Notes: generated by a model from the sequence alone, not told the origin. 64,000 nucleotides of DNA from an uncultured Planctomycetales bacterium (GCA_964572155.1 CAZNDZ010000001.1:1082732-1146731); one strand, 5' to 3'; positions 1,951 to 38,876 are shown, counted from the stretch's first letter. Numbers and translations: made by a program.

Positions 1951-1982
1951 AATTAAGAGGGTTGTTAAAAGGGAGAAGGGCG

Positions 1983-4262
1983 ATGTGGAAAAATTTAGCT
2001 GGGATTATTCCCGAAGAATTAAAGAAACAAAGGGCATGGGTTGGCTATGTGCTTAAACCTAAGGGGAATAAGATCGATAAAATCCCCATGAATGTGATGA
2101 CTGGCCAGCCTGCCAAGAGCAATGATCCGGAAACGTGGACGGATTTTGATTCTGCCGTGGCATTGGCTATTCAGCGCGGATATGCGGGCATAGGTTTTAT
2201 GTTCCAGCCGCCTTTTGTAGGCATAGATATAGACCATTGCGTGCAAGATGGCCGCTTATCTGACATGGCGGTCGATATTTTAAAGATCATGAATTGCTAC
2301 GCTGAATATTCCCCCAGCGGCACAGGTGTCCACTTGATCTTTAAAGGTGAAATCAAACGCGCAAGGCGCATTGCAGGCAAGGGACTAGAGATTTATTCAA
2401 AAGGAAGATTTTTTACTGTTACGGGAAATCGGCTAATGGATTATCCAGCTGTGGTTGAGGACAGGACATCGGATCTTAATCAGATATGGTCAAAATATTT
2501 TGAACCGCAAGAGGACATATTATCCAAGATTGCCAAGAGTAAAGATGCCGATAAATTTAACAAACTTTTTTCCGGTCAATGGCAGGGTGATTATCCATCA
2601 CAAAGCGAAGCTGATCTTGCATTGTGCAATAAATTGGCGTTTTGGACAGGCAAGGACGCAGGCAAAATGGATTCGCTATTTCGGCAATCCGGTTTGTTCA
2701 GGACCAAATGGGATGATAAGCATTTTGGCGATGGCAAGACCTATGGCCAAAGTGTTATTGAAAAGGCAGTTAGCAGTTGTTCGAGTTCTTATGAACATCC
2801 TTCCGAGCATTTCTGGCCGCGTCAGAGAGAAAAAATTCCTCAAGGCGAAATCATCACCCGCGACTGTGAAGAAAACATTAAACAATTCTTTCAAGATCAG
2901 CAGGGCAATTGTTTTATTGTTCTGCCCTTCGATAACCATCAAGAGGTGTGCCTAACCGACAGCAGTCGTTTTCGCAATTGGATGGCCAAGCGTTATCGCG
3001 ATGCGTATGGTGCACCACCCAATAATGAAGCATTAAAACAAGCCCGGGTTCAGGTGGAAGCGATTTGCGAGTCATCGCCCAAGGTGGAATTGTTTAACCG
3101 CGTTGGCTGGCATGACGAGGCCATTTATTACGATTTAACAACACCAGACTGGAAGGGAATTAAACTTACCAAAGATGGATGGGAGATTGTAGCGTTACCA
3201 TCCATATTCCGCAGGTATAACCATCAAAGCCAGCAAGTTATTCCAGTTAAAGGTGGCGACCCAAAAGAGATTTTGAAATTTTGCAATGTTGCAAAAGAAG
3301 ACCACTGTCTTTTTATGGTCACTATTGCTACGTTTTTTATTCCCAATATTCCTCATGTCATACCCACCCAAAGCGGTGAGCAGGGTACCGGCAAATCCAA
3401 CAATAGCCGCAAGATCAAAGGATTAAGTGACCCATCCAAGGTTATGCTTATTTCTGCTCCCAAGGATTTGGAGCAAGCGCAAATGATCGCGGACAAGCAT
3501 TGGATTAATAACTTTGACAATATTTCCCGCATCCCTGAATGGCTTAGCGACTTTTTATGTCGTGCAGTCACAGGCGAAGGCGACATGAAGCGCAGTTTAT
3601 ACACTAATGACGATGAGTACATTCGTTCTTACCGTAGATGTTTTGTGCTTAATGGAATTGGCGTATCGGCATGGCGACCTGATTTATTAGACCGCTCGAT
3701 TGTCTTTGATGTTCCTGTTCTTTCTAACCGCCGTCCAGAGCGATTAATTGAAAAGGAATGGAACGAAGCCTTACCGCGCATATTAGGCGGCTTCTTTACA
3801 GCTATTTCCAAAGCCATGAATAGCGTTGATGCCGTAACCGGCCATGAGAAATTTCGCATGGCCGACTTTGCCCAATGGGGCGCCTGTCTTGCTGATGAAT
3901 TAGGTTTCAGCCGAGAAGAGTTTTTCCGCAAGTATCAGGATTCCGTTAATCGTAAATGGCAGGACACCGCTGAGGACAGCTCATTTGCCGCGAAGATCAG
4001 AAACTTGGTTGATAGCAATGCCGGGTTTTGGCAAGGGTCGGTCAGTGACATATTGGAAAAAATAAAATCCCCTAATGGTTTTGATAAGAACATTCCACAA
4101 ACGCCCAAGGCACTCGCGTCTGAATTGATGCGTTTGGCACCTGTCATGCGCAATGTGGGTATTGACATTATCCGAAGTGATAAGCGCGAGGCAGGAACAG
4201 GCAGGAAGGTTTTTATATTCAGGAAGCGGCCAGATGAACTTTCTGAGCCAAGGCCATTTTGA
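1983..4262 (+). CDS. Replication protein: N-terminal primase-polymerase-like domain fused to a P-loop (D5/SF3-like) helicase domain (phage/plasmid primase P4-family-like)
   Basis: Walker A motif GEQGTGKS in the C-terminal half. The N-terminal region is rich in conserved acidic and His residues (GIDIDHC, SGTGVHL). An RBS (GGGAGAAGGG) precedes the ATG at 1983; the track ORF begins at TTG 1962. Confidence 0.75.
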   Translation: MWKNLAGIIPEELKKQRAWVGYVLKPKGNKIDKIPMNVMTGQPAKSNDPETWTDFDSAVALAIQRGYAGIGFMFQPPFVGIDIDHCVQDGRLSDMAVDILKIMNCYAEYSPSGTGVHLIFKGEIKRARRIAGKGLEIYSKGRFFTVTGNRLMDYPAVVEDRTSDLNQIWSKYFEPQEDILSKIAKSKDADKFNKLFSGQWQGDYPSQSEADLALCNKLAFWTGKDAGKMDSLFRQSGLFRTKWDDKHFGDGKTYGQSVIEKAVSSCSSSYEHPSEHFWPRQREKIPQGEIITRDCEENIKQFFQDQQGNCFIVLPFDNHQEVCLTDSSRFRNWMAKRYRDAYGAPPNNEALKQARVQVEAICESSPKVELFNRVGWHDEAIYYDLTTPDWKGIKLTKDGWEIVALPSIFRRYNHQSQQVIPVKGGDPKEILKFCNVAKEDHCLFMVTIATFFIPNIPHVIPTQSGEQGTGKSNNSRKIKGLSDPSKVMLISAPKDLEQAQMIADKHWINNFDNISRIPEWLSDFLCRAVTGEGDMKRSLYTNDDEYIRSYRRCFVLNGIGVSAWRPDLLDRSIVFDVPVLSNRRPERLIEKEWNEALPRILGGFFTAISKAMNSVDAVTGHEKFRMADFAQWGACLADELGFSREEFFRKYQDSVNRKWQDTAEDSSFAAKIRNLVDSNAGFWQGSVSDILEKIKSPNGFDKNIPQTPKALASELMRLAPVMRNVGIDIIRSDKREAGTGRKVFIFRKRPDELSEPRPF

Positions 4263-4448
4263 TGTTCACACAGTTACTGCCTTGGCAGTAAAGGGGTTGT
4301 GGAGTTTTGTGAATATCGTGAATCACACAATCTAATTAAGAAGATTTAATAAAAGAAAAGGAGGTAATAACACAAACAACAATCGTAGAAATCACAGGAA
4401 AAGAAGTTCACAACGCTCACTAACATCACAAAAACGGAGGGTAGGACA

Positions 4449-5111
4449 ATGAAACTCAATTTCTTAAAAGTTTTAAACAATCAGAACAACACGCCGGAAG
4501 AAATCGCCGAGCAGATCGTAGCGCTGGAGCAAAAGCAGGTCGAATACGAAAAGCAATTTTCCGCCTTACGCCTACAGGCTAAAGAATTTCGTCAAAAGAA
4601 ACTGTGCGGTGATGTTATATCTGACGCGCAGATCAATGAAGCAGATCGCAAGGTTGAGAATGCCAGCCTTGATTTAGAAGCGGTCAATGAAAGCATAACC
4701 AAGCTAATTGACAAATTACGTAAGTCGTATGAATCCATCGTCGCCAATGGCCATATCGTTGGAGGCCAGAAAATGAAAACAATAGAACCTGAGCGTGATC
4801 GTCTCATGGAAGAACTGGCGCACGCTAAAGCCAAGCTATTGGTTATCGCTGAGCAAATATGGGGAAATGGTGTAATCCGCAAGTTAAAAGATAGCAGCGT
4901 ATTTGATGATGACGCTAAAACTGATCCTATTATGAAAGAAGATGTGGAACGATTAAGGATGGCCGTTAAACAGCCGAGCTATTATGACAAGTATCAGCAA
5001 GCTCAAAGTTATTCCAGCTGGACGAATAATTTAAGGGTTGAGGATGAGATTGCCCGGGTTCTTGAACAACAGCGGATTAAATTAAACGTACCAGTTAAGG
5101 AATCGGTTTAA
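4449..5111 (+). CDS. Hypothetical coiled-coil protein (220 aa)
   Basis: GGAGGG RBS 7 nt upstream. Heptad-rich, charged sequence with no catalytic motif. Confidence 0.5.
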   Translation: MKLNFLKVLNNQNNTPEEIAEQIVALEQKQVEYEKQFSALRLQAKEFRQKKLCGDVISDAQINEADRKVENASLDLEAVNESITKLIDKLRKSYESIVANGHIVGGQKMKTIEPERDRLMEELAHAKAKLLVIAEQIWGNGVIRKLKDSSVFDDDAKTDPIMKEDVERLRMAVKQPSYYDKYQQAQSYSSWTNNLRVEDEIARVLEQQRIKLNVPVKESV

Positions 5112-5402
5112 GTAAAAATATGCGGAGGGGCTTAAGAAGGTTTCCATAGGCCTGATTAAGTCTTGCTATGAACATGGTGCATAGCAAAAGGGCGGGCGCT
5201 TCCCCCAAAACAATCCTTCCTCCGCACACCTTTTTTGGGTCCTTCCGGGTGGGGTACCGTATGCGGGTCGGGCGATGCTCGGACTGTCAGTGATACAAAA
5301 ATTAAAAAATGTCGTGTCGTGGTCGTATGGGGTGGTTTTGGGTGGTGCTTATGTGTATTCCTCGTCAACAATTTAATTTTATGATGCGACATAGGGTCGG
5401 AC

Positions 5403-5446
5403 AAACCGGACATTGTCAATGTCCGAATGTCCTATTGTGTCCGGTT
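5403..5446. promoter_or_regulatory. Nested inverted repeat (AAACCGGACA...TGTCCGGTTT enclosing the 17-bp palindrome GGACATTGTCAATGTCC); candidate operator upstream of the HTH gene and hsdR
   Basis: Perfect palindrome read directly at 5408-5424 with 10-bp outer arms. It lies ~80 bp upstream of the 5525 ORF. Confidence 0.35.
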
Positions 5447-5524
5447 TAAGGAATTGGTTGTTTGTGAAATTATATGTGATAGAATACGGTTTAAAATGTA
5501 ACAGGCAAATGAGGAGATTTATTA

Positions 5525-5710
5525 ATGCAAGGGCTTGTTAAAGCATTTACATCAGAAGAGATAGCAGAGTATCTACGATTGCATCCGTACACCATTCGAC
5601 GCTTGGCAAGGGAAGGAAAAATCCCCGCCTTCCGTGCTGGCGGCCAATGGCGGTTTAGGAAGGATGATATTGATAAGTGGTCGAAGGCGTATCCGTTTGT
5701 AAAAAAATAA
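5525..5710 (+). CDS. Excisionase/AlpA-family helix-turn-helix DNA-binding protein (61 aa)
   Basis: The sequence ...EIAEYLRLHPYTIRRLAREGKIPAFRAGGQWRFRKDDIDKW is typical of MerR-like excisionase-family HTH_17 proteins. The gene ends 28 bp before hsdR. Confidence 0.7.
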   Translation: MQGLVKAFTSEEIAEYLRLHPYTIRRLAREGKIPAFRAGGQWRFRKDDIDKWSKAYPFVKK

Positions 5711-5738
5711 ATTATAAAGAGAAAAGGGCATACCCCCA

Positions 5739-8495
5739 ATGCCAGAAAAACTAAACGAAGCAAAAACACGTGTCAAAATCATTGATCCCCTTTTAACAGC
5801 TGCTGGATGGGATTTAAACGATCTCACCAAAGTCCGCAGGGAAGTGCCCGTGGATGGATATGACAAAGAACCGTGGAATGGTGTGACGGATTATTGCCTT
5901 TATGACTCCCGCAATAATGTTTTGGCTGTTGTCGAAGCCAAGAAAATGAGCCGAAGCCCACGGGAAGCAGACGAGCAGTTGCGGTATTACTTAAATTACA
6001 TTAGCAAAAATCAGGAATTTACACCGTTTGGATTTATGTCTAATGGGCTCAATACTTATTTCTGGGAAATAGGTTTAGCGCATCCGCGTTTGATTGCAGG
6101 ATTCTTTAGTCCAGAAGATTTGTCGCGTTTGTTATTCCTTCGCCAAAACCAAAAAGAACTTAGTGATTCATCTATTAATCGATCAATTGCCAGTCGACCT
6201 TATCAACAAGAAGCAGTCCGTCGGGTTTGTGAAGCGTTTTCACAAGGCAAAAGACGTGCGCTGATCGTGATGGCAACAGGAACAGGGAAGACTCGCACCA
6301 CAATGGCGCTTATTGAAATATTTCTAAAAACAAATCAGGCTAGGAATGTTCTGTTCTTGGCTGATCGTGATGCGTTGGTTGAGCAGGCGTTATCGGATGG
6401 ATTTAAATCCCATTTACCAAATGAACCACGGGACAGGATTTATACGCGCAATATCGACACGACAAAACGTTTATTTGTGGCAACAGAACAAACAATGAAT
6501 GTGTGTTATACAAAATTTAGTCTTGGATTTTTTGATTTGATTATTTTTGATGAGGCGCATCGTTCCATATTTCACAGGTTTTCAGAAGTCATGGATTATT
6601 TTGACGCGCGTATGGTTGGTCTTACGGCAACACCTGCTACTTTTATTGATAGAGACACATTCGGTGTTTTTGGTTGTCAAAATAGCACACCGACATTCCT
6701 TTACGACTATAAGACCGCAGTAAAGGAAGAATATCTGGTTGATTTTAGTTTATACCAAGCCCAGACAGGATTTCAGCGCAAAGGGATTAAGGGTGTTGAA
6801 TTAAGTGAAGAGGACAAGAACGCTTTAATTACTCAAGGTATTGATCCTGATGAGATTGATTATTCAGGAACAGATATTGAAGTGGCTGTCAGCAACAAAG
6901 ACACCATACGCAAACAATGCGAAGAAATTTGGGATGCGTGTTTAAAAGATCAATCAGGTCAGCTTCCAGGTAAAACAATCATCTTTGCCATGACCAAGGA
7001 ACACGCAGAGCGTATCCGCGAAGTCTTTGAAGAAATGTATCCGCAACAACTGGATTTAGTGCAGGTTATTACGTCCAGCACAGAGCGTGTGCGCGACGGC
7101 AGTTACGGTGATGGTTTAATTACAAAATTCAAAAAGAATAATTTGCCAAGGATTGCTATCTCTGTTGATATGCTCGACACCGGAATCGACGTGCCGGAGG
7201 TGGTTAATCTGGTTTTTATGAAGCCCGTTCAGTCACAAATCAAAATGTGGCAAATGATCGGACGCGGCACCAGAAGCAATGCCACATGCATGTATTTTGA
7301 TAGATTGCCAGACGGTAAGAAAACAGAATTTAAAATCATTGATTTCTGGCAAAACGATTTTCAAAAAGACCCCAAGGGTGGGGCATCTCCCGTTATTCCT
7401 ATTTTGGTGTCCATTTTTAACACGAGATTAAAGAGTTTTGAAGCTCTCGATAAATCAAGGCAGGCCGAAGATTATGCGCAGGTGGTTGCAGATTTACGCG
7501 CTATGGTTGAACGTATTCCTGTCGATTGTTTCTCAGTTAGAAGAGTGTGGGTAGAAATTGAACATGTTTGGGGTGATGAGTTTTGGACGTTATTGACTAA
7601 GGATAAAATTGAATTTTTACGCCTTAGGATTGGGCCCTTGTTGCGATTTGTGGGAGAGGTTGATGTTGCCGCTGAAACATTTACCAGTAAACTTGAGAGA
7701 TTGCGTTATCAAGTATTCACTGGCAAGGTAATGCCTGATTTATTGCGTTCCATTGCCGAAGATGTCAGCCTGTTGCCCGAATATATTTTGAAAGATGAAA
7801 AGTATGCTAAATCAGCAGAGTTGTGTTTGTCTGATAAATTGGCAAGTGCATCACCTAAAGAATTGCGTCAGGTCATTATAGATTTGGCGGGTGTGATGCG
7901 AAACCGTAGGAATCGGCAGAATACCTTTATTTCAATTGATCTGCCAGATTTCATTGATACGCGCGGCCTTATTTCAATTGGCGAGGGTGGTGAGCAGATT
8001 TACGTTGAAGAGTATAGGAAACGGGTTGAAGCAAAGGTGCTGTCTATCATAGAAAATCATCCGGCCATTGAAGCGATCCGTCAGGGCAGGGATGTTAGTG
8101 AAGAAGATTTAATTTCTCTAGAACGGGCTTTGCATGATGGGCTAACAGGGGGAGATATACAGCTAAGTACGCTGAATATCAAGCGGGCGTATGGTCTAAA
8201 GGTCAGTAGTTTCCTTGGGTTTATTCGTCATATTTTATCGCTGGATACCATTCCCGAATATGCGTCTGTCGTTGGACGTTGCTTTGAGAATTTTATTACA
8301 GCGCATCATTACAATGCGGATCAGATTTTATTTTTGCGCGCTGTCCAGAATGTGTTCTTACAAAAGCGAAAACTTAGTGAAGCGGATCTATACGAACCGC
8401 CATTAACCAATTTTGGCAGGAACGCGGTTGATAAATTATTTTCACCAGATGATGTGCGTGATCTTCTGCAATTTGCCCAAAGGATAGAGGTCTAA
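5739..8495 (+). CDS. hsdR: Type I restriction enzyme R subunit
   Basis: N-terminal HsdR_N-like segment (TRVKIIDPLLTAAGWD). DEAD-box helicase Walker A (MATGTGKTRT), DEAH-like box (FDEAH) and the helicase C-terminal domain are present. Confidence 0.85.
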   Translation: MPEKLNEAKTRVKIIDPLLTAAGWDLNDLTKVRREVPVDGYDKEPWNGVTDYCLYDSRNNVLAVVEAKKMSRSPREADEQLRYYLNYISKNQEFTPFGFMSNGLNTYFWEIGLAHPRLIAGFFSPEDLSRLLFLRQNQKELSDSSINRSIASRPYQQEAVRRVCEAFSQGKRRALIVMATGTGKTRTTMALIEIFLKTNQARNVLFLADRDALVEQALSDGFKSHLPNEPRDRIYTRNIDTTKRLFVATEQTMNVCYTKFSLGFFDLIIFDEAHRSIFHRFSEVMDYFDARMVGLTATPATFIDRDTFGVFGCQNSTPTFLYDYKTAVKEEYLVDFSLYQAQTGFQRKGIKGVELSEEDKNALITQGIDPDEIDYSGTDIEVAVSNKDTIRKQCEEIWDACLKDQSGQLPGKTIIFAMTKEHAERIREVFEEMYPQQLDLVQVITSSTERVRDGSYGDGLITKFKKNNLPRIAISVDMLDTGIDVPEVVNLVFMKPVQSQIKMWQMIGRGTRSNATCMYFDRLPDGKKTEFKIIDFWQNDFQKDPKGGASPVIPILVSIFNTRLKSFEALDKSRQAEDYAQVVADLRAMVERIPVDCFSVRRVWVEIEHVWGDEFWTLLTKDKIEFLRLRIGPLLRFVGEVDVAAETFTSKLERLRYQVFTGKVMPDLLRSIAEDVSLLPEYILKDEKYAKSAELCLSDKLASASPKELRQVIIDLAGVMRNRRNRQNTFISIDLPDFIDTRGLISIGEGGEQIYVEEYRKRVEAKVLSIIENHPAIEAIRQGRDVSEEDLISLERALHDGLTGGDIQLSTLNIKRAYGLKVSSFLGFIRHILSLDTIPEYASVVGRCFENFITAHHYNADQILFLRAVQNVFLQKRKLSEADLYEPPLTNFGRNAVDKLFSPDDVRDLLQFAQRIEV

Positions 8496-8498
8496 AAA

Positions 8499-10205
8499 AT
8501 GCTTACAGATTCAAATTTAAAATCAAAAGTTGATTCACTGTGGAATAAGTTATGGTCAGGAGGATTGGCTAATCCTTTAGATGCGATTGAACAGCTTTCA
8601 TTTTTATTGTTTTTAAAGCGTCTGGAAGAAGCCGAAGAGGATCGCGAGCGAGTCGCTAAGTTGCGTAAATTGAAATATGAACCAATATTTAAAGATAAGG
8701 AATTGCGTTGGTCATATTGGTCAAATTTAGATGCGGCGAGCGCTCTTAAAGCAGTAAAGGAAAAAGTATTTCCTTTTATTAAAGAATTAGGTGGTGTCGG
8801 CGGCTCGTTTGCAGAGCAAATGGAAAATGCTGAATTTAAGATTAATAAACCAAATTTATTAATTGAAGCATGTCGTCTGATCGATGAAATGCAAATTTCA
8901 AGCCAGAATCAGGATGTTCAGGGTGATCTTTATGAATACCTTTTAAGTAAGCTAAATATCGCTGGTACCAACGGCCAGTTTAGAACGCCACGTCATATCA
9001 TTCGCATGATGGTGCAGATGATTGACCCGCGTCCCGGTGAAAAGATGTGTGACCCGGCGGCCGGTACGTGCGGATTTCCGGTTAATTTCTATCAGTACAT
9101 TTTAGAAAAGAATACCGATCCAAAATTGCTCACCTATGATGAAGATGGGTTTCCCCACAAATTGGTTGGCGATAAATTAACCAAGGAACAAAATGAATTC
9201 TTACAAAACGAGGCAGTCACTGCGTATGACAACGACGCAGGAATGACCATGCTTCGCATTGGATCAATGAATTTGATCTTGCATGGTATAGCACAACCCA
9301 ATTTTAAGCATACTGATGCACTTTCCAAAGCATATAACGAAGAACGAAAATACGACATTATCTTAGCCAATCCACCTTTTAAGGGGGCAATTGACGCATC
9401 TGACGTTAATCCTACATTACCGACAAAATGTAAGAAGACGGAACTCTTATTTCTACATCTGTTTTTAAGGCTTTTAGAAAACGGTGGACGCGCGGCTGTC
9501 ATTGTGCCAGATGGTGTTTTATTCGGTTCCAATCAGGCGCATTTAGAGATTAGAAAGAAGCTAATTGAGGAAAATCGACTGGATGGTGTTGTGTCCATGC
9601 CAGCGGGTGTGTTTAGGCCTTATGCAGGAGTATCAACAGCCGTATTGTTTTTCACCAAGGGCGCATCAACCGAGAAAGTCTGGTTTTACGATATGGAACA
9701 TGATGGCTTCTCGCTGGATGATAAACGTCAAAAGGTTGAGGAGACTGATATTCCTGATTTGCTTGAGTGCTGGAGGAATCGGTCTGATAAAAAGTTTTCA
9801 CAAACCAGAGATAAGCGTTTGGCAGAGCTTCAAGAGAAGATTACGCCACTAAAGAAAAAACGGTTGGCGCTTTTGGCGGAGGTTAATTGGTTAACATTTG
9901 AACAGGTAATCGCTGAAGATGGTAATGATAAGGCGCGATTAGCATTAGAAGCAGATAAATCAAAGCTGGACGATTTGCATAAAGAAATTGAACCCCTTCA
10001 GAATGAAATCAATCAGCTTACCCGCCAATTTTGGGTGGCCAAGGACAAGCTGAAGGCCAATAAATATGATTTATCCTCTAGCCGATACCGTTTGATTGAG
10101 CAGGATGAGATTTATTATGAGAAACCTGCAATGACTTTACAAAGATTAGATGAAATTAATAAAGTTTCGGATAGTCTTATTGTTAATCTTAAGAAAGAGA
10201 TTTAG
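8499..10205 (+). CDS. hsdM: Type I restriction-modification N6-adenine DNA methyltransferase subunit
   Basis: Contains the motif ILANPPF (NPPF catalytic motif) and the AdoMet-binding segment DPAAGTCGF. It starts 4 nt after the hsdR stop. Confidence 0.9.
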   Translation: MLTDSNLKSKVDSLWNKLWSGGLANPLDAIEQLSFLLFLKRLEEAEEDRERVAKLRKLKYEPIFKDKELRWSYWSNLDAASALKAVKEKVFPFIKELGGVGGSFAEQMENAEFKINKPNLLIEACRLIDEMQISSQNQDVQGDLYEYLLSKLNIAGTNGQFRTPRHIIRMMVQMIDPRPGEKMCDPAAGTCGFPVNFYQYILEKNTDPKLLTYDEDGFPHKLVGDKLTKEQNEFLQNEAVTAYDNDAGMTMLRIGSMNLILHGIAQPNFKHTDALSKAYNEERKYDIILANPPFKGAIDASDVNPTLPTKCKKTELLFLHLFLRLLENGGRAAVIVPDGVLFGSNQAHLEIRKKLIEENRLDGVVSMPAGVFRPYAGVSTAVLFFTKGASTEKVWFYDMEHDGFSLDDKRQKVEETDIPDLLECWRNRSDKKFSQTRDKRLAELQEKITPLKKKRLALLAEVNWLTFEQVIAEDGNDKARLALEADKSKLDDLHKEIEPLQNEINQLTRQFWVAKDKLKANKYDLSSSRYRLIEQDEIYYEKPAMTLQRLDEINKVSDSLIVNLKKEI

Positions 10206-10209
10206 AAAA

Positions 10210-11319
10210 ATGTCATCTGTGCGTTTTGATGAAGTTGCAGAATTTATTAATGGCAAGGCTTTTAAGCCTTCAGATTGGTCAGAGTCTGGATTGCCAATTA
10301 TTCGTATTCAAAATTTAACAGGTACCAGTGAAAGATTTAATTATTTTAATGGTGATGTAGAAGATAAATTTCGCGTTAGGAATGGGGATATTCTAATATC
10401 TTGGTCTGCATCGTTAGGTGTTTACTATTGGCAGGGAGCAGAAGCTGTATTAAATCAACATATTTTTAAAGTTTGCCCGAAAAAGAACATAGATCCAGAT
10501 TACTTTTATTACGCATCGACAGGTAAACTTCAAGAAATGGTTGCCCAAGTTCATGGGGCAACGATGCAACATATAACCAAAGATCGTTTCGATGCGCTTT
10601 TAATTGCCTTGCCCTCTTTAACTGAACAAAGAAGAATAGCAAAATATTTAAAACAAGCCGACCGCCTTCGCCGTATCCGCCGTTTTGCGCTTGAAATGAG
10701 CGATTCATTTCTTCCAGCTGTTTTTGTTGAGATGTTTGGTGATCCTGTGAGAAATGCCCAGGCATGGCCAACAGAATCCTTAGGCGTGCTTGGAAAAGTG
10801 ACAACAGGTGGGACTCCTCCAAGCGCGAAATCAGGAATGTTTGGCGGGAAGACTCCTTTTATTACGCCTGGTGACCTAGAAGTTGATACGAAATATTCGC
10901 AAAGGTTTTTGACTGATGATGGTGTTAATGAAAGTGTTATCGTTAGATCAGGTTCAACATTGGTATGTTGCATTGGGGCAACAATTGGAAAGACGGATAA
11001 AGCGCGTGTTAAATGCTCTTTCAATCAGCAGATCAATGCCATTGAATGGGGAAAAAATATTAATGATGATTTTGGTTTTTATCTTATGCGATTTTTTTCA
11101 AAGATTGTAGCTGAACGTGGTCAATCGACCACATTGCCTATTTTGAAGAAGTCAGCGTTTGAAGAGTTGATTTTGCCAGTTCCACCGTTACCTATTCAAG
11201 AAAAGTTTGCTGATATTGTCGAACGACATGAACAATTACGTTCTACGCAGGTCGAATCCTTACGCCAAGCCGAGCATTTGTTCCAATCCTTGCTTCATCA
11301 GGCGTTTAGTGGGAAATAA
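10210..11319 (+). CDS. hsdS: Type I restriction-modification specificity subunit (two target-recognition domains)
   Basis: ATG at 10210 directly follows the hsdM stop. Shows bipartite target-recognition-domain (TRD) architecture and the conserved central and C-terminal coiled regions typical of HsdS (LPSLTEQRRIAKYL..., LPVPPLPIQEKFADIVE). Confidence 0.8.
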   Translation: MSSVRFDEVAEFINGKAFKPSDWSESGLPIIRIQNLTGTSERFNYFNGDVEDKFRVRNGDILISWSASLGVYYWQGAEAVLNQHIFKVCPKKNIDPDYFYYASTGKLQEMVAQVHGATMQHITKDRFDALLIALPSLTEQRRIAKYLKQADRLRRIRRFALEMSDSFLPAVFVEMFGDPVRNAQAWPTESLGVLGKVTTGGTPPSAKSGMFGGKTPFITPGDLEVDTKYSQRFLTDDGVNESVIVRSGSTLVCCIGATIGKTDKARVKCSFNQQINAIEWGKNINDDFGFYLMRFFSKIVAERGQSTTLPILKKSAFEELILPVPPLPIQEKFADIVERHEQLRSTQVESLRQAEHLFQSLLHQAFSGK

Positions 11320-11333
11320 GAGAGGTATTCATT

Positions 11334-12458
11334 ATGGATAAATGGTTAGGAATAATAACTGGTACTAATCGAGGTATTGTGTCTTTTGAATGGCAACAGG
11401 ATGCACAGAACAAGATTTCTGGCACCTTCAATGTTTATGACGTGGATAATACCAATATTTCTGGAAAAGTAGAAGGTGTCGTTAATGGTGAAAAGATCGG
11501 TTTAAAATTATTAAATATTCAGCCACAAGGAGAAGGGATTTCAAAGTCAGGAACAGCCGACTTAGTTATGAACGGTAAAGAGCTTAAAGGAGTATGGGCT
11601 ACAGATTTAGGCGCAAAAGGTGAATGTGTTCTTTATCAATTAATTCAATCACAGCAAAGTGCTGTATCAGACTTGCCGGATCCAGATTTAACTCTGGAAA
11701 CCAAAGACATAACGATTGCTTTTTGTACTTTCAATAAGAAAAGCATTGAGGATATTTTTAAGATAATGACAGGTATCGTTAATGCAATAAGGAAAGATAA
11801 AAAGGCGCAGGTATTGCCTCCAATTTATTCGATTACTTATGATGCGGAAGAGAGAATTAGAACGTATTCTTTGTCAGAATTTTTACAAAAATTGAATGAT
11901 GCCAAGAAAATCTGGTATGTGGGTTTTGAATTTAAAGATAAGGCCGATCTAAAAAATATTTTTATCAATATTTTTTATCAAGAAAATATTGGTTCAAATA
12001 TAAGAAGCAACGTTTTAGTTGAAAGTACAGATAAAGAAATTGTAATGGTGATCCCAGAAATGGTGAGAGGACTGGTCAGCAAGGTAAGGAATAGAAATTT
12101 ATTTTTTTACCATTGGTTATTTGAGGCGGTCATTCAATTGGCCGCTGTCATAGGAATGTTTCTTTTGTCGTATTTAGTTAGCAATAAGCTGACAATATCA
12201 TTGCCTAACTATAATTTTGCTTTGGATAAGCCCTATATCTTCGTGATTGTGCTTATTATATTTTCCAATCTCTGGACATATGTCTCGAGAATGATTTTAG
12301 GGTTGATTCATAGAAATTTTCCTGTCGTTGACATAAGAAATCGGGAGCGGGTAGGATACCTTCGAGAGGTGATCGTGACTCTTCTCGGGGCATTTATTTT
12401 GTGGGCATTTACAAATTTCGGATCGTTGATTTATAAATGGCTTCTTATAAAGAATTAA
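11334..12458 (+). CDS. Uncharacterised protein: ~260-aa soluble N-terminal region plus three predicted C-terminal transmembrane helices
   Basis: Hydrophobic stretches LFFYHWLFEAVIQLAAVIGMFLLSYLV, IFVIVLIIFSNLWTYVSRMILGLI and VTLLGAFILWAFTNFGSLIY. No recognisable family. It sits 15 nt after hsdS. Confidence 0.6.
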   Translation: MDKWLGIITGTNRGIVSFEWQQDAQNKISGTFNVYDVDNTNISGKVEGVVNGEKIGLKLLNIQPQGEGISKSGTADLVMNGKELKGVWATDLGAKGECVLYQLIQSQQSAVSDLPDPDLTLETKDITIAFCTFNKKSIEDIFKIMTGIVNAIRKDKKAQVLPPIYSITYDAEERIRTYSLSEFLQKLNDAKKIWYVGFEFKDKADLKNIFINIFYQENIGSNIRSNVLVESTDKEIVMVIPEMVRGLVSKVRNRNLFFYHWLFEAVIQLAAVIGMFLLSYLVSNKLTISLPNYNFALDKPYIFVIVLIIFSNLWTYVSRMILGLIHRNFPVVDIRNRERVGYLREVIVTLLGAFILWAFTNFGSLIYKWLLIKN

Positions 12459-12485
12459 GCATCAAAATCCAATAGGTGAATAGTA

Positions 12486-13781
12486 ATGGCAGTACTTAAT
12501 CAAGAGAGCATCAAGGAAATTTATTCTGAGATACGGCTTATGGGCATCCGTTATGCGGGAATGCTTAATAATGTTCATCAGTTATCTGCCACTTTAAAAG
12601 AAGAGAAGGCCAAGGAATATCTTTCTTATGGGGTTGGTAGGAGGATAACGGTTCTAAACCGTTGCATAGAAAACGTATTTACTCTTTTTCCGCTAAATCA
12701 AGAAGCCCCGTTAGAGGCAGATAAAGTAAAAGACGTCGATATTAATCTACATGCTTTTTGTGTAAATATTTTCGGCCTTTTGGATAATTTAGCTTGGGTT
12801 TGGGTATATGAAAAGAAATTGTCGCCAAAGATAAATGAGCATAATGTTGGATTATTTAAAGAAAAAGTGAAGAGATCCTTACCCAAAGCATTTCAAGAGT
12901 ATTTAGATTCAGACTTAATTCAAAAATGGCACCATAAATACCAAAAAGATTATCGAAACGCTGTATCGCACAAGATTCCATTATATGTGCCACCTAAGAC
13001 GCTAAATTCTGAACAGGCCGGACAATATCAAGAAATAGAGAATAAAATTAACGATTGTTATAAGGCTTTTATACATGGGAATTCTGGGGATCAAATCAGT
13101 AAAATAGAAAAGTTGCGAACAGAACAAGAAGCCGTTGGTAGTGCTTGTCCGCTTTTTGTCCATTCATTTACCGAGGCAGATGGCCAGTTATTCATACATC
13201 CTCAAATGATCGCTGATTTTAAGACCATTGAAGAAATTGTCGGAAAATTTTGTCAAGCAATTCATTCTGGGGAAGTTAAGCAAGAGGAAGCCCAAACAGA
13301 TGAAGAAAAGTTTAAATTCTTAGCTGAGCATTTCTTTTACGAAATCCAGCAACTTCTTGTTGCTGTGTACGTCGTTAAGCATCCATTGCCATTCTGGATC
13401 AATATAAAATTAGAGGTCTTTCTTTTACATGCGCGATCTTTGTATGAATTCTTTTATTCAAAAGAAAAGCGTAATGACGATGATGCCCGTGCGTATGATT
13501 TTGTCGGTGATGTCAATAATTGGCTGAAGGAGAGGCCATTAAAATCCAGTGATATTGAACAATCCATTAAGCGTATGAATAAAGAGCTTTCGCATATAAC
13601 TTATAAAAGGCATTCTGGGGTTGTTCTTGAGAAACAATGGGATTTGACGCCTATTAAGGATCACTTGTTGGCCGTGACAAAAGTTTTCTTAGAGAATGTT
13701 CCCAATGGATCAAAGATTATGGATGATATTAATAAATTTGAGGTGATATTAGTTAACAATGGTCTTCCGCCGAATGCATGA
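12486..13781 (+). CDS. Uncharacterised protein (431 aa) carrying two Rx4-6H (HEPN-like) motifs; putative RNase-type defence effector
   Basis: RNAVSH at residues 157-162 and RMNKELSH at 363-370. Otherwise no recognisable family. The assignment is motif-only. Confidence 0.5.
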   Translation: MAVLNQESIKEIYSEIRLMGIRYAGMLNNVHQLSATLKEEKAKEYLSYGVGRRITVLNRCIENVFTLFPLNQEAPLEADKVKDVDINLHAFCVNIFGLLDNLAWVWVYEKKLSPKINEHNVGLFKEKVKRSLPKAFQEYLDSDLIQKWHHKYQKDYRNAVSHKIPLYVPPKTLNSEQAGQYQEIENKINDCYKAFIHGNSGDQISKIEKLRTEQEAVGSACPLFVHSFTEADGQLFIHPQMIADFKTIEEIVGKFCQAIHSGEVKQEEAQTDEEKFKFLAEHFFYEIQQLLVAVYVVKHPLPFWINIKLEVFLLHARSLYEFFYSKEKRNDDDARAYDFVGDVNNWLKERPLKSSDIEQSIKRMNKELSHITYKRHSGVVLEKQWDLTPIKDHLLAVTKVFLENVPNGSKIMDDINKFEVILVNNGLPPNA

Positions 13782-14362
13782 AGGTATTCATATTCATTGC
13801 TATGCTGACACTTCGTTTAACAAATAAAACTTTGAAAGAGCTGCCTTTCCCCAAGTCTGCCATTTTGACCTTGCCCGAGCATGGGGGCGTGCTGGAAGAC
13901 TGGTATGTGCATGTGTTTGTCCATGAAAAGCGGCGGCATTTGATGTTTACGCACGCGGGGTCGTTGGTGTCGTTTGTGGCATCTGGGGTTTATCAGCGTG
14001 ATATGAAGGATATAGAAAAGATTTTCAGGCGTGAGTTTAGTCGGTTTTTGGCATTAGAGAAATTTGACCAGCAAGATATTCTGATGTTCCAATTAGCCTT
14101 GGGTGATATGCGCTTGGCCAAGACCATTGACCGCAGGGTAACGGGATCAATGGTTGAGCTAATCAAAAGTTATAAATGGTATGTGAGCGACACGTATAAT
14201 CATAAGGGACATGTGCCGGAGGATTATGCGCTCTACGAATTAAATCGAATTCCGCTGGGTGCGTTAAAATATGCGTTCGCCATTGAAATGTTCCATAAAA
14301 CCGTGGACGTGCTCAAAGGTTTTCACCATATCCCCGGGCATGGGGCAGTGGGATTGAATTAG
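13778..14362 (+). CDS. Uncharacterised protein (194 aa), translationally coupled to the upstream gene (ATGA overlap), with distinctly higher GC than its neighbours
   Basis: Start overlaps the preceding stop. His-rich (HVFVHEKRRH, HKGH, FHHIPGHG). GC looks ~45% against ~33% for the two upstream genes. Confidence 0.5.
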   Translation: MKVFIFIAMLTLRLTNKTLKELPFPKSAILTLPEHGGVLEDWYVHVFVHEKRRHLMFTHAGSLVSFVASGVYQRDMKDIEKIFRREFSRFLALEKFDQQDILMFQLALGDMRLAKTIDRRVTGSMVELIKSYKWYVSDTYNHKGHVPEDYALYELNRIPLGALKYAFAIEMFHKTVDVLKGFHHIPGHGAVGLN

Positions 14363-14414: not shown

Positions 14415-15437
14415 ATGGGGAAAAAATTGCAAACGGTTCATAAAGATAACAAAGTTATTCTTTATACTACGGCGGATGGCAAGGTTACCGTTGATGTGTT
14501 TTTTTCGCGGGACAATTTCTGGTTGACCCAAAAAACCTTGGCAGATTTATTCGGGGTTAATGTTCCAGCAGTATCTCGGCATTTAAAGAATATTTATGCC
14601 AGCAAAGAACTTGTGAGGGAGGCAACTGTTTCCAAAATGGAAACTGTTCAAACTGAGGGTGGCCGTAAGATTTCTAGGTATGTTGAGTATTATAATTTGG
14701 ACGCTGTAATTGCCGTAGGGTATCGGGTCAACTCTGTTAAAGCCACGCATTTTCGGATCTGGGCCACAAATACCCTTAGGGAGTTCATGGTTAAGGGTTT
14801 TGTCCTTAATGATGAAATGCTTAAAAATGGGCGGGCTTTTGGTGAAGATTATTTTGATGAACTTTTGGAAAAAATTCGGGAGATTCGCGCAAGCGAGCGT
14901 AGGGCATATCAGAAGATCGCTGATGTGTTTGAGCAATGTAGCAGTGATTACCAAAGTAATAGCCAGGAAACACAGCTGTTTTATCAGATTGTCCAGAATC
15001 ATCTGCACTTTGCGACAGTTGGGAAGACTGCGGCAGAGATTGTTTATCAACGAGCGGACAGTAAAAAACCATTTATGGGTTTGACGACATGGAAGAATTC
15101 TCCAAAAGGGAAGGTTTTAAAGAGTGATGTTACAGTGGCAAAGAATTATTTAAATCAGGAAGAAGTATCCAAGTTGAATCGTCTGGTGACCATGTTTATA
15201 GATTTTGCTGAACTTCGGGCGTTAAATCGGCGCATTATGACAATGAAGGATTGGCTTAAACAAATTGATAAGTTTCTTCAATTGACCGATCAACAGGTGC
15301 TTAGTAATGCGGGGAAGATTTCACATGAAATGGCGACTGCCAAAGCCCATCAAGAATACGATAAATTTCGGGTTAAGCAAGATAGTGAGTACGTGTCAAA
15401 TTTTGATCAGGAATTCGCTAAGTATCTGAAGGGCTAA
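14415..15437 (+). CDS. rhuM: RhuM-family protein (Fic/DOC-related virulence protein RhuM family)
   Basis: Strong resemblance to RhuM proteins along the whole length (ILYTTADGKVTVDV, AVGYRVNS, RIWATNTLREFMVKGFVLNDE, DYFDELLEKIREIRASERR, MGLTTWKN, VTVAKNYL, NRLVTMF). Confidence 0.85.
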   Translation: MGKKLQTVHKDNKVILYTTADGKVTVDVFFSRDNFWLTQKTLADLFGVNVPAVSRHLKNIYASKELVREATVSKMETVQTEGGRKISRYVEYYNLDAVIAVGYRVNSVKATHFRIWATNTLREFMVKGFVLNDEMLKNGRAFGEDYFDELLEKIREIRASERRAYQKIADVFEQCSSDYQSNSQETQLFYQIVQNHLHFATVGKTAAEIVYQRADSKKPFMGLTTWKNSPKGKVLKSDVTVAKNYLNQEEVSKLNRLVTMFIDFAELRALNRRIMTMKDWLKQIDKFLQLTDQQVLSNAGKISHEMATAKAHQEYDKFRVKQDSEYVSNFDQEFAKYLKG

Positions 15438-37038: not shown

Positions 37039-38876
37039 AATTTTATAACCATTAAAGAATAGATCACGATAACGCCTATAACAAAAACCAAGGCATAGAG
37101 TTGAACCAAACCGGTTTGGAATGAACGGCACAATTTTCCGGTAATATCGGCAGCATCCGTTAACCCATGCACACCTAAACGTACAATAAAGATCTTTTCA
37201 AAGAGAGATAAGATGTTTGCAAATGTTTGTTGAATGTGTTCGACATACCATGTGTAGACGATGTCGAAATAGTATTTATTCTTTAAGACCTGATACAAGC
37301 CGCCAAGTTTTTTCTCAAGGGGGTCAACTGATGGTTTTTGAGCATAGATGACAAATGAGACAACCAAACCTAATAAACCAAAGAACGAAGAAATTAAAGC
37401 AACCTTCATATTTAAAACAGGATGTTCACCCTCGGGAAACAAGAAATGTGGGATGCCAATAAACCCACCAATAACCGATAGGATGGCCAAGAAGATTAAC
37501 GGGAAGGTCATGATTGCTGGTGATTCATGGGTGTGATCATGGTCAGAAGGTTTACCCCAGAAGGCAACCCAGAACAAACGCCCCATATAAAAGGATGTTA
37601 ACGCTGAGGCTAAGGTGGCTAAGACATACAGGCTAGTATTATGTTCATACGCCAATGCTAAGATTTCATCTTTACTCCAAAATCCACTTAAAGGCCAAAT
37701 ACCGCAAAGGGCTAAGGTGCCGATTAAAAATGTAAAGCCAGTGATCGGCATGGTTTTAAGAAGCCCGCGCATTTTCCAAATATTCTGTTCATGATGCATG
37801 GCGTAAATAACACTACCAGCGCCGAGGAATAACAGTGCTTTAAAGAAGGCATGGGTGGTTAAGTGATACATGCCAGGCATAGGTCCCGCTAAACCCAAAG
37901 CCATGACCATCAAACCTAATTGACTAAGTGTCGAGTAAGCCAAAATGCGTTTAATATCATTCTCAACAACAGCCAAAGTTGCGGCCATGAGTGCTGTTAT
38001 GCCACCGACATAGGCAATGACGGTTAAAGCAGCAGTTAATGGTTCGAAGATAAAAAATGTACGGGCTAAAAGATAAACACCAGCGGCCACCATCGTTGCT
38101 GCGTGAATTAAAGCGCTAACAGGGGTTGGGCCTTCCATCGCATCAGCCAGCCAAACATGTAATGGAACTTGGGCAGATTTACCGACAACACCGCAGAATA
38201 ATAATAAAGCGGCGATGGTTAACATGTGAGGGTCAATGTGAGATACAGCCGCGGCTAAATCCGTTAATTGAAAGCTACGTCCTTGACCAACATTGGACAA
38301 ACTCCATAAAAGTAAAATCCCGCATAAGAAACCAAAATCAGCGAGTCGATTGACCATGAAAGCTTTGACACCAGCGTCTGCAGCAGATGGCTTGTGATAC
38401 CAAAAACCAATGAGCAGATAAGAACTTAAACCAACCAATTCCCAGAAGATAAATAACTGGATTAGATTATTAGAGAGGACAATGCCTATCATAGAGAAGG
38501 CAAATAAACTTAAATATGCAAAGAAGCGCGGCATGCTTGGGTCATCTGCCATATAACCACGAGAATAAATGAAGATAGCACTACCAACCCCTGTGACAAC
38601 CAAAAGCATCATGATGGCCAAAGGATTTACTAAGAATCCAAAATTGATGGTCAGTTGATCAAATTGCATCCATGTGAGCGATTGTTGTAATTCAAGAGCA
38701 GGGTGTGATTGGAAAATACTTTTAGCTGTAAGTAACGTACAGACAAAAGAAATTAAAATACCAAGGATGGCTGTTATCGAGCTTAAGTTTTTTGATTTAA
38801 GGAAGAATAGCGTGATCAGCACACATGCAACCATGGGTGCAAAAAAAGCTATCCAGACTAAATTAGGATCTAGCAT
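37035..38876 (-). CDS. nuoL: NADH-quinone oxidoreductase subunit L
   Basis: 613 aa antiporter-like subunit with a long C-terminal extension. Confidence 0.9.
   Translation of the reverse strand: MLDPNLVWIAFFAPMVACVLITLFFLKSKNLSSITAILGILISFVCTLLTAKSIFQSHPALELQQSLTWMQFDQLTINFGFLVNPLAIMMLLVVTGVGSAIFIYSRGYMADDPSMPRFFAYLSLFAFSMIGIVLSNNLIQLFIFWELVGLSSYLLIGFWYHKPSAADAGVKAFMVNRLADFGFLCGILLLWSLSNVGQGRSFQLTDLAAAVSHIDPHMLTIAALLLFCGVVGKSAQVPLHVWLADAMEGPTPVSALIHAATMVAAGVYLLARTFFIFEPLTAALTVIAYVGGITALMAATLAVVENDIKRILAYSTLSQLGLMVMALGLAGPMPGMYHLTTHAFFKALLFLGAGSVIYAMHHEQNIWKMRGLLKTMPITGFTFLIGTLALCGIWPLSGFWSKDEILALAYEHNTSLYVLATLASALTSFYMGRLFWVAFWGKPSDHDHTHESPAIMTFPLIFLAILSVIGGFIGIPHFLFPEGEHPVLNMKVALISSFFGLLGLVVSFVIYAQKPSVDPLEKKLGGLYQVLKNKYYFDIVYTWYVEHIQQTFANILSLFEKIFIVRLGVHGLTDAADITGKLCRSFQTGLVQLYALVFVIGVIVIYSLMVIKL

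Follow-up and report, generated by a model that had tools for sequence, protein, structure and literature searches.

A fusion of two putative HEPN-like helical domains encoded with a membrane-protein gene behind a Type I restriction-modification operon

The window, i.e., the whole stretch of 64,000 nucleotides that was analysed, carries a block of defence-related genes around a Type I restriction-modification (RM) operon. All genes in this part of the window lie on the plus strand. The gene under study (hereafter the target) encodes a protein of 431 aa and, as the preliminary description had placed it, lies directly downstream of the Type I RM genes and one more gene. The features of the locus are as follows.

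1962-4262, plus strand: NrS-1-like primase-polymerase gene
5525-5710, plus strand: small HTH_17 gene, upstream of hsdR
5739..8495, plus strand: hsdR, Type I restriction subunit (ResIII, EcoEI_R_C and HSDR_N; PADLOC REase_I, 4e-120)
8499..10205, plus strand: hsdM, Type I methyltransferase (N6_Mtase and HsdM_N; PADLOC MTase_I, 2e-159)
10150..11319, plus strand: hsdS, Type I specificity subunit (Methylase_S in two stretches; the start may be 10210)
11334..12458, plus strand: gene of the 374-aa partner protein (a soluble N-terminal part and three predicted transmembrane segments)
12474..12479, plus strand: Shine-Dalgarno sequence AGGTGA, read from the sequence, 6 nt 5' of the target ATG
12486..13781, plus strand: target gene, 431 aa, ATG start, encoding a two-domain helical HEPN-like fusion (open reading frame and translation)
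12486..13268, plus strand: N-domain (residues 1-261), a stand-alone family of ~255 aa lacking a Pfam model
12954..12971, plus strand: motif 1, RNAVSH (R157-H162), Rx4H, in the N-domain
13296..13778, plus strand: C-domain (residues 271-431), a large stand-alone family of ~160 aa lacking a Pfam model
13572..13595, plus strand: motif 2, RMNKELSH (R363-H370), Rx6H, in the C-domain
13778..14362, plus strand: DUF6933 gene (PF22016, 1.6e-26; PADLOC PDC-S63, a weak match at 8e-7)
14415..15437, plus strand: RhuM-family gene (PF13310, 1e-108; PADLOC candidate PDC-S05, 4e-147)

The start of hsdS is ambiguous: the longest open reading frame, which shares 56 nt with hsdM, begins at 10150, and the public gene call on an identical contig begins at 10210 and gives 369 aa. 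The ATG of the DUF6933 gene overlaps the target stop codon (ATGA). No tRNA genes were found within the window, and the promoter and terminator scan of the 5-17 kb region gave counts at or below the shuffle expectation. Since the block is followed by housekeeping genes (Hsp20, nuo), we rejected a prophage reading of the window and regard the block as a chromosomal mobile or defence island. The presence of the primase-polymerase and HTH_17 genes upstream of hsdR suggests that the whole RM/defence block is part of an integrative mobile element.

The target and the gene of the 374-aa membrane protein travel as a two-gene cassette directly behind hsdS. Window positions 11324-13759, which correspond exactly to these two genes, recur as one block with 87.6% nucleotide identity in two metagenomic contigs, L048 and L050, and the homology ends at both sides of the block; the short contig L049 matches positions 12822-13759 only. 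In L048 the cassette also lies behind the 3' end of hsdS (Methylase_S, 7.5e-8), and it is followed by genes for MNT, HEPN (PF05168) and DUF4172-Fic in place of DUF6933 and RhuM. The G+C content of the cassette (window 11000-13000) is 35-36%, compared to 39-44% in the flanking RM and RhuM genes, which fits a separate acquisition. The target gene is under purifying selection, with a dN/dS of 0.089 against the 88%-identical metagenomic copy in L048 (N-domain, 0.077; C-domain, 0.108), and the same holds for the gene of the 374-aa protein (dN/dS 0.058 against L048). The latter protein, which the preliminary description had overlooked, has its transmembrane segments at the C-terminus (residues 260-284, 295-322 and 340-366, from hydropathy); it belongs to no Pfam or PADLOC family and matches phrog_30208 weakly.

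At the 3' side, the homology to the groundwater contigs ends 22 nt before the target stop codon (window 13759-13781; L048:2848-3026), and the target open reading frame has 52 extra codons in those contigs. The 3' end of the target gene looks like a module-swap junction. DUF6933 is absent from L048-L050; in a Campylobacterales MAG, one of its homologues (L024:2382-2897) immediately precedes a stand-alone N-domain gene. No mention of DUF6933 was found in the literature searched.

The open reading frame, its length of 431 aa and the positions of both motifs given in the preliminary description were all recovered in the sequence, and the identical protein (P0001) is present on six contigs. The two motifs are the only Rx4-6H matches in the protein. 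When the target protein was shuffled 5000 times, the mean number of such matches was 1.54, and 46% of the shuffles had at least two. The count of Rx4-6H matches is therefore uninformative, and the weight of the motifs comes from their conservation in homologues. The preliminary description had pointed out that its HEPN call was drawn from a short motif and nothing else; the shuffles agree, as the motif count does not exceed chance.

The target is a fusion of two families that have no detectable mutual sequence relationship (hhalign probability 0.4%). We recovered 272 homologues of the target, and nearly all of them were proteins of ~255 aa that cover residues 1-260 only (~60% of the query). 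The family of the C-domain comprises 2391 cluster representatives at E<=1e-3 in an exhaustive profile search. The complete fusion was found only in the lineage of the window and in the 88%-identical groundwater variant, and in 47 loci no C-family genes occurred near N-family genes. An origin of the two domains by internal duplication was considered and rejected on the basis of the hhalign value, despite their co-alignment by MAFFT. Because the domains are not detectably related, "fusion" is a better word than the "tandem" of the preliminary description, which suggests duplication; at the profile level the domains are unrelated, and each normally stands alone. In alignments A2 and A4, MAFFT let N-only and C-only homologues share columns, so mixed-domain alignments need checking.

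In the N-domain family, R157, D/N158 and H162 were kept in 120 of 120 homologues (alignment A5), position 158 being D in 118 and N in two of them. The consensus of the motif is Y-R-D-A-L-S-H-R-I-P-L-Y-V-P-P, and the motif was retained even at 25-31% identity, in homologues from rhizobial plasmids and from a Patescibacteria MAG. Further invariant polar residues are R52, R53, N63, N94, N101, H238, Q240 and D244. The conserved histidines of the domain are H89, H162, H226 and H238, of which H89 is lost in distant homologues, and several Asp and Glu residues are conserved as well.

Two of these distant homologues (25-31% identity), both annotated as hypothetical, are encoded on conjugative rhizobial plasmids: L058 on Sinorhizobium fredii pSF83666d (37562-38341) and L059 on pTiS4 (5296-6183). 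One rhizobial homologue, on a Sinorhizobium plasmid, is found two genes downstream of an "abortive infection family protein", with a recombinase gene adjoining, and the other is near repABC and an integrase gene.

The C-domain motif is also conserved, with the consensus R-x-[NG]-K-E-[LIV]-[AS]-H-L-T-Y-x-R. Among 155 C-domain relatives, the position of R363 is occupied by R in 134 (86%), by K in 11 (7%) and by Q in six (4%), i.e., it is basic in 94%, and H370 is H in 153 (99%). E286, H315, R317 and R375 are conserved at 97-100% in the same 155 sequences (R375 in 99%). The residue that follows R363 is hydrophobic across the family (A, V, I or M) and not polar. The three closest stand-alone homologues of the C-domain have Q in place of R363, which suggested that this arginine might not be conserved; that possibility was discarded, as R is the rule in the wider family. 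The outcome that the preliminary description had named as speaking against it, motifs at non-conserved or non-equivalent positions in homologues, was thus not observed for the N-domain (120/120) or, with the frequencies given above, for the C-domain. Some members of the C-family carry HTH domains. A search for loci with a narrow C-domain alignment mostly recovered the same element, and tblastn with the C-domain, two C-family members and the 374-aa protein gave no match to plasmids or phages.

According to Anantharaman et al. (2013; PMC3710099), the HEPN domain is a four-helix up-down bundle in which an insert between helices 2 and 3 is frequent, and the Rx4-6H motif is located at the end of helix 3. 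The definition also includes a polar residue (N, D or H) after the arginine and a conserved acidic residue in helix 2, typically in the form Ex3[KR] (PMC3710099). To compare the target with this fold we used AF2 models. The C-domain, modelled alone from a 79-sequence alignment, reached a pLDDT of 91.6 and a pTM of 0.86. Its predicted helices span 11-36, 41-63, 94-108, 127-142 and 147-164 in domain numbering, with the insert between the second and the third, i.e., 272-297, 302-324, 355-369, 388-403 and 408-425 in the full protein. R363...H370 (R102...H109 in domain numbering) was located where the third long helix, 355-369, ends. The full-length model had a pLDDT of 78, with ~90 over most of the N-domain. 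The core helices of the N-domain are predicted at 40-67, 78-109, 143-161 and 175-196, with short insert helices between the second and the third; a C-terminal extension contributes further helices. R157-H162 closes helix 143-161, where the local pLDDT is low (55-65; residues ~151-170).

Both domains are thus predicted to be bundles made up of helices only, in which an insert separates core helix 2 from core helix 3. In the models the motif of each domain occupies the C-terminal end of core helix 3 and continues into the next loop. As modelled, both fit the HEPN topology and motif placement of PMC3710099. The polar residue after the arginine is present in the N-domain and absent in the C-domain. 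The conserved acidic residues of helix 2 are D100 and E109 in the N-domain and E310 (93%) in the C-domain, and none of them has the Ex3[KR] form. The motif shape [hydrophobic]-[A/S]-H is common to both domains and to AbiU2.

A natural domain swap provides a further link to HEPN proteins. In P0054 and P0063 the same N-domain (45-50% identity) is joined to a Pfam HEPN_AbiU2 domain, which was detected with E-values of 2e-8 and 4e-11 (34-43 bits) and has its R-x5-H intact. As this is a genuine HEPN_AbiU2 domain, the C-terminal slot holds a HEPN domain in an independent fusion. This also means that the N-domain has been paired twice with a C-terminal helical R...H domain, one of which is an established HEPN.

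The differences between the two motifs raise the question of whether both domains are catalytic. The N-domain alone could be the HEPN-type RNase. The C-domain would then be a four-helix bundle without catalytic function, of either the HEPN or the NTase-substrate-binding type, which would bind a nucleotide, RNA or a partner protein and exert control over the N-domain. The motif of the N-domain has the canonical form R-[DN]-x3-H and is 100% conserved; the C-domain motif has a long spacer of six residues, a hydrophobic residue after the arginine and Q in the closest stand-alone homologues. The HTH domains on some C-family members would also suit a regulatory or binding function, as would a 222-aa open reading frame in L053, in which an AbiEii nucleotidyltransferase fragment is joined to a C-family domain. 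However, the conservation of H370, R375, H315, R317 and E286 at 97-100% in 155 diverse sequences is more active-site-like than scaffold-like, and the equivalent slot in P0054 and P0063 is occupied by an AbiU2 HEPN domain with an intact R-x5-H. We consider catalysis by the N-domain alone rather doubtful. As for the open reading frame in L053 itself (4415-5083), it comprises an AbiEii toxin fragment (PF08843, residues 6-86) and the C-family domain (residues 83-217), and may represent either an NTase-HEPN-like fusion or a frameshifted gene.

Searches for known relatives gave few leads. A Pfam hmmscan of the target returned no match for either domain even at E<=10, and no HEPN family was found by Pfam hmmscan among 79 C-family and 64 N-family members. 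Pfam, NCBIfam, PHROG and PADLOC gave no meaningful assignment for the target and hold no model for either family. In PADLOC-DB 2.0 no model matched the target or the 374-aa protein, and there was no systematic match among family members. A sequence search of the PDB with both domain profiles yielded nothing relevant, and Foldseek against the PDB gave no significant match, with nothing below E 0.47; the fold searches returned mostly generic bundles, which are compatible with HEPN and not specific to it. In hhalign comparisons with a 32-sequence AbiU2 alignment the probability was 1.3% for the C-domain and 10.8% for the N-domain, and against the PF05168 HEPN sequence of L048 it was <=0.5% for both families. 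These comparisons are a weak test, because they covered two HEPN families only and had no secondary-structure term.

Given these results, neither domain may be a HEPN RNase. They could instead belong to another helical-bundle enzyme or sensor, e.g., a His/Asp/Glu metal-dependent hydrolase or a ligand-binding regulator, in which the R...H spacing is a coincidental helix-end motif. Such a reading would explain why there is no profile link to any HEPN family and why generic bundles dominate the fold searches, and it is in line with the roughly 1.5 Rx4-6H matches expected by chance at the composition of the target. In addition, H89, H162, H226 and H238 of the N-domain, together with its conserved Asp and Glu residues, could bind metal, and the invariant polar residues of this domain exceed the needs of a minimal HEPN site. 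At the same time, H89 is not retained in distant homologues, and coincidence would have to account for the fact that two unrelated domains both have a motif where core helix 3 ends and a loop begins, as well as a conserved acidic residue in helix 2. The [hydrophobic]-[A/S]-H shape matches AbiU2, and the AbiU2 swap and the defence-island context fit HEPN. On balance, we find it unlikely that both domains fall outside the HEPN type. The HEPN call of the preliminary description was thus supported in part: the conserved motifs, their placement at helix 3, the AbiU2 swap and the RM linkage speak for it, whereas the lack of a profile match to a known HEPN family and the hydrophobic residue after R363 speak against it. 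The N- and C-domain probably represent two new HEPN-like families in a new fusion.

The association with RM genes, which the preliminary description had noted, recurs beyond the window. Besides L048-L050, an N-domain gene follows hsdR, hsdM and a gene for a 433-aa protein in L016, and in L005 an N-domain gene lies two genes downstream of a Dcm-Vsr-HNH array. Of the C-family, P0129 comes after an MTase-Mrr_cat gene, and P0140 overlaps the end of a gene whose product is an adenine methyltransferase 899 aa or more in length. Neighbourhoods that combine RM, HEPN and RhuM/DOC genes are a described pattern (PMC3710099). Other contexts of the two families are recombinase islands, Fic and Schlafen-like ATPases, and most N-domain loci have unrelated neighbours and do not adjoin RM genes. 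All-against-all BLAST of 125 neighbours from 36 loci revealed no conserved partner gene for the N-domain family; the only recurrence was one extra DUF6933 adjacency.

The composition of the locus would also be compatible with an addiction module resembling a toxin-antitoxin system, which would serve to stabilise either the mobile island or the RM operon and in which membrane protein and two-domain protein would counteract one another. The two genes form a tight unit under purifying selection with a G+C content below that of the surroundings, in L048 an MNT-HEPN toxin-antitoxin pair and Fic are found next to them, and the island has a primase-polymerase. Members of the N- and C-families, though, nearly always occur without the membrane protein or any conserved partner, and the recurrent RM adjacency points to defence. 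An addiction module appears very improbable to us as the function of the cassette, although addiction and defence roles are not mutually exclusive.

Taken together, the target is probably a second-line anti-phage RNase of a putative HEPN type. For the more specific reading, a cytoplasmic effector with two diverged HEPN-type domains that acts as an RNase backing up the Type I RM system, we see the chances as about even. According to this reading, each domain would be a diverged HEPN-type helical bundle, with the invariant R-[DN]-x3-H in the N-domain and the conserved R-x6-H in the C-domain. By analogy with HEPN enzymes, the arginine and histidine residues would form a metal-independent endoribonuclease site, located either between the two domains of one chain or formed via dimerisation. 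The cassette would probably be co-transcribed with hsdRMS, and the effector would be held inactive and released during infection. The trigger may be a phage that evades or inactivates the Type I restriction enzyme whose genes lie just upstream. Once released, the effector would cut host or phage RNA (tRNA, rRNA or mRNA), so that translation stops and the infection is aborted. The 374-aa protein with its three transmembrane segments might serve as a regulator, sensor or anchor of the effector.

A bolder proposal is that the 374-aa protein and the target constitute an anti-phage system of two genes, undescribed so far, that settles behind Type I RM operons. Its RNase site would be intramolecular and Cas13-like, made of two new and mutually unrelated HEPN families and gated by a membrane sensor. 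We regard this as a speculative and rather unlikely scenario. If true, the C-family with its 2391 clusters and the N-family would be new, widespread stand-alone HEPN RNases of defence islands.

Should the effector reading hold, two unannotated families, of which the C-family alone amounts to thousands of sequence clusters in environmental bacteria, would gain a predicted function as abortive-infection RNase effectors. The RNases that back restriction enzymes would moreover gain a new architecture, in which one chain contains two different HEPN-like domains and has a membrane partner. Should the reading fail, a conserved R-x4-6-H at a helix end would prove insufficient for a HEPN call. R157, H162, R363, H370, H315 and R375 are the targets for mutation, and the natural AbiU2 domain swap can be used for testing the pairing of HEPN domains.

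Several known groups of HEPN proteins invite comparison with the target. HepT (DUF86; PDB 5yep, 7ae2 and 8xdj), from HEPN/MNT toxin-antitoxin systems, has no sequence similarity to the target, whose domains are larger and have extra helices. HepT-MntA has an adjacent MNT antitoxin, whereas the neighbours of the target are the 374-aa membrane protein and DUF6933, and no MNT. L048 does encode an MNT, but as part of a separate downstream module in which its partner is a PF05168 HEPN. The AbiU2-type proteins P0054 and P0063 resemble the target in that a helical domain of ~170-200 aa comes after the N-domain and has, near the C-terminal third, an R-x5/6-H that ends in [hydrophobic]-[A/S]-H. However, the target C-domain gave no match to HEPN_AbiU2 (PF18734) at E<=10 and belongs to a separate and much larger family without a model.

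In Cas13, two dissimilar HEPN domains on one chain combine into one RNase site. The target likewise has two mutually dissimilar HEPN-like domains in one polypeptide; unlike Cas13, it has no CRISPR context and no crRNA-binding lobe, and it is about one third of the size.

The closest parallels in genomic setting are PrrC (EcoprrI) and RloC, which are anticodon nucleases of the HEPN type found in association with Type I RM. As in these systems, the gene of the target, a putative effector of putative HEPN type, lies inside or behind hsdRMS, and its locus also has a RhuM gene, as in the neighbourhoods of RM, HEPN and RhuM/DOC genes (PMC3710099). PrrC and RloC consist of an N-terminal ABC/Rad50-type ATPase and a C-terminal HEPN domain, whereas the target, in which Pfam and PADLOC detected no ATPase domain, has two helical domains in place of one HEPN and shares no sequence similarity with them. 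Moreover, genes of the PrrC/RloC type lie between the hsd genes, whereas the target gene comes after hsdS and has a membrane-protein partner. The logic expected to be common to PrrC, RloC and the target is that of a second-line defence that would act after restriction has failed.
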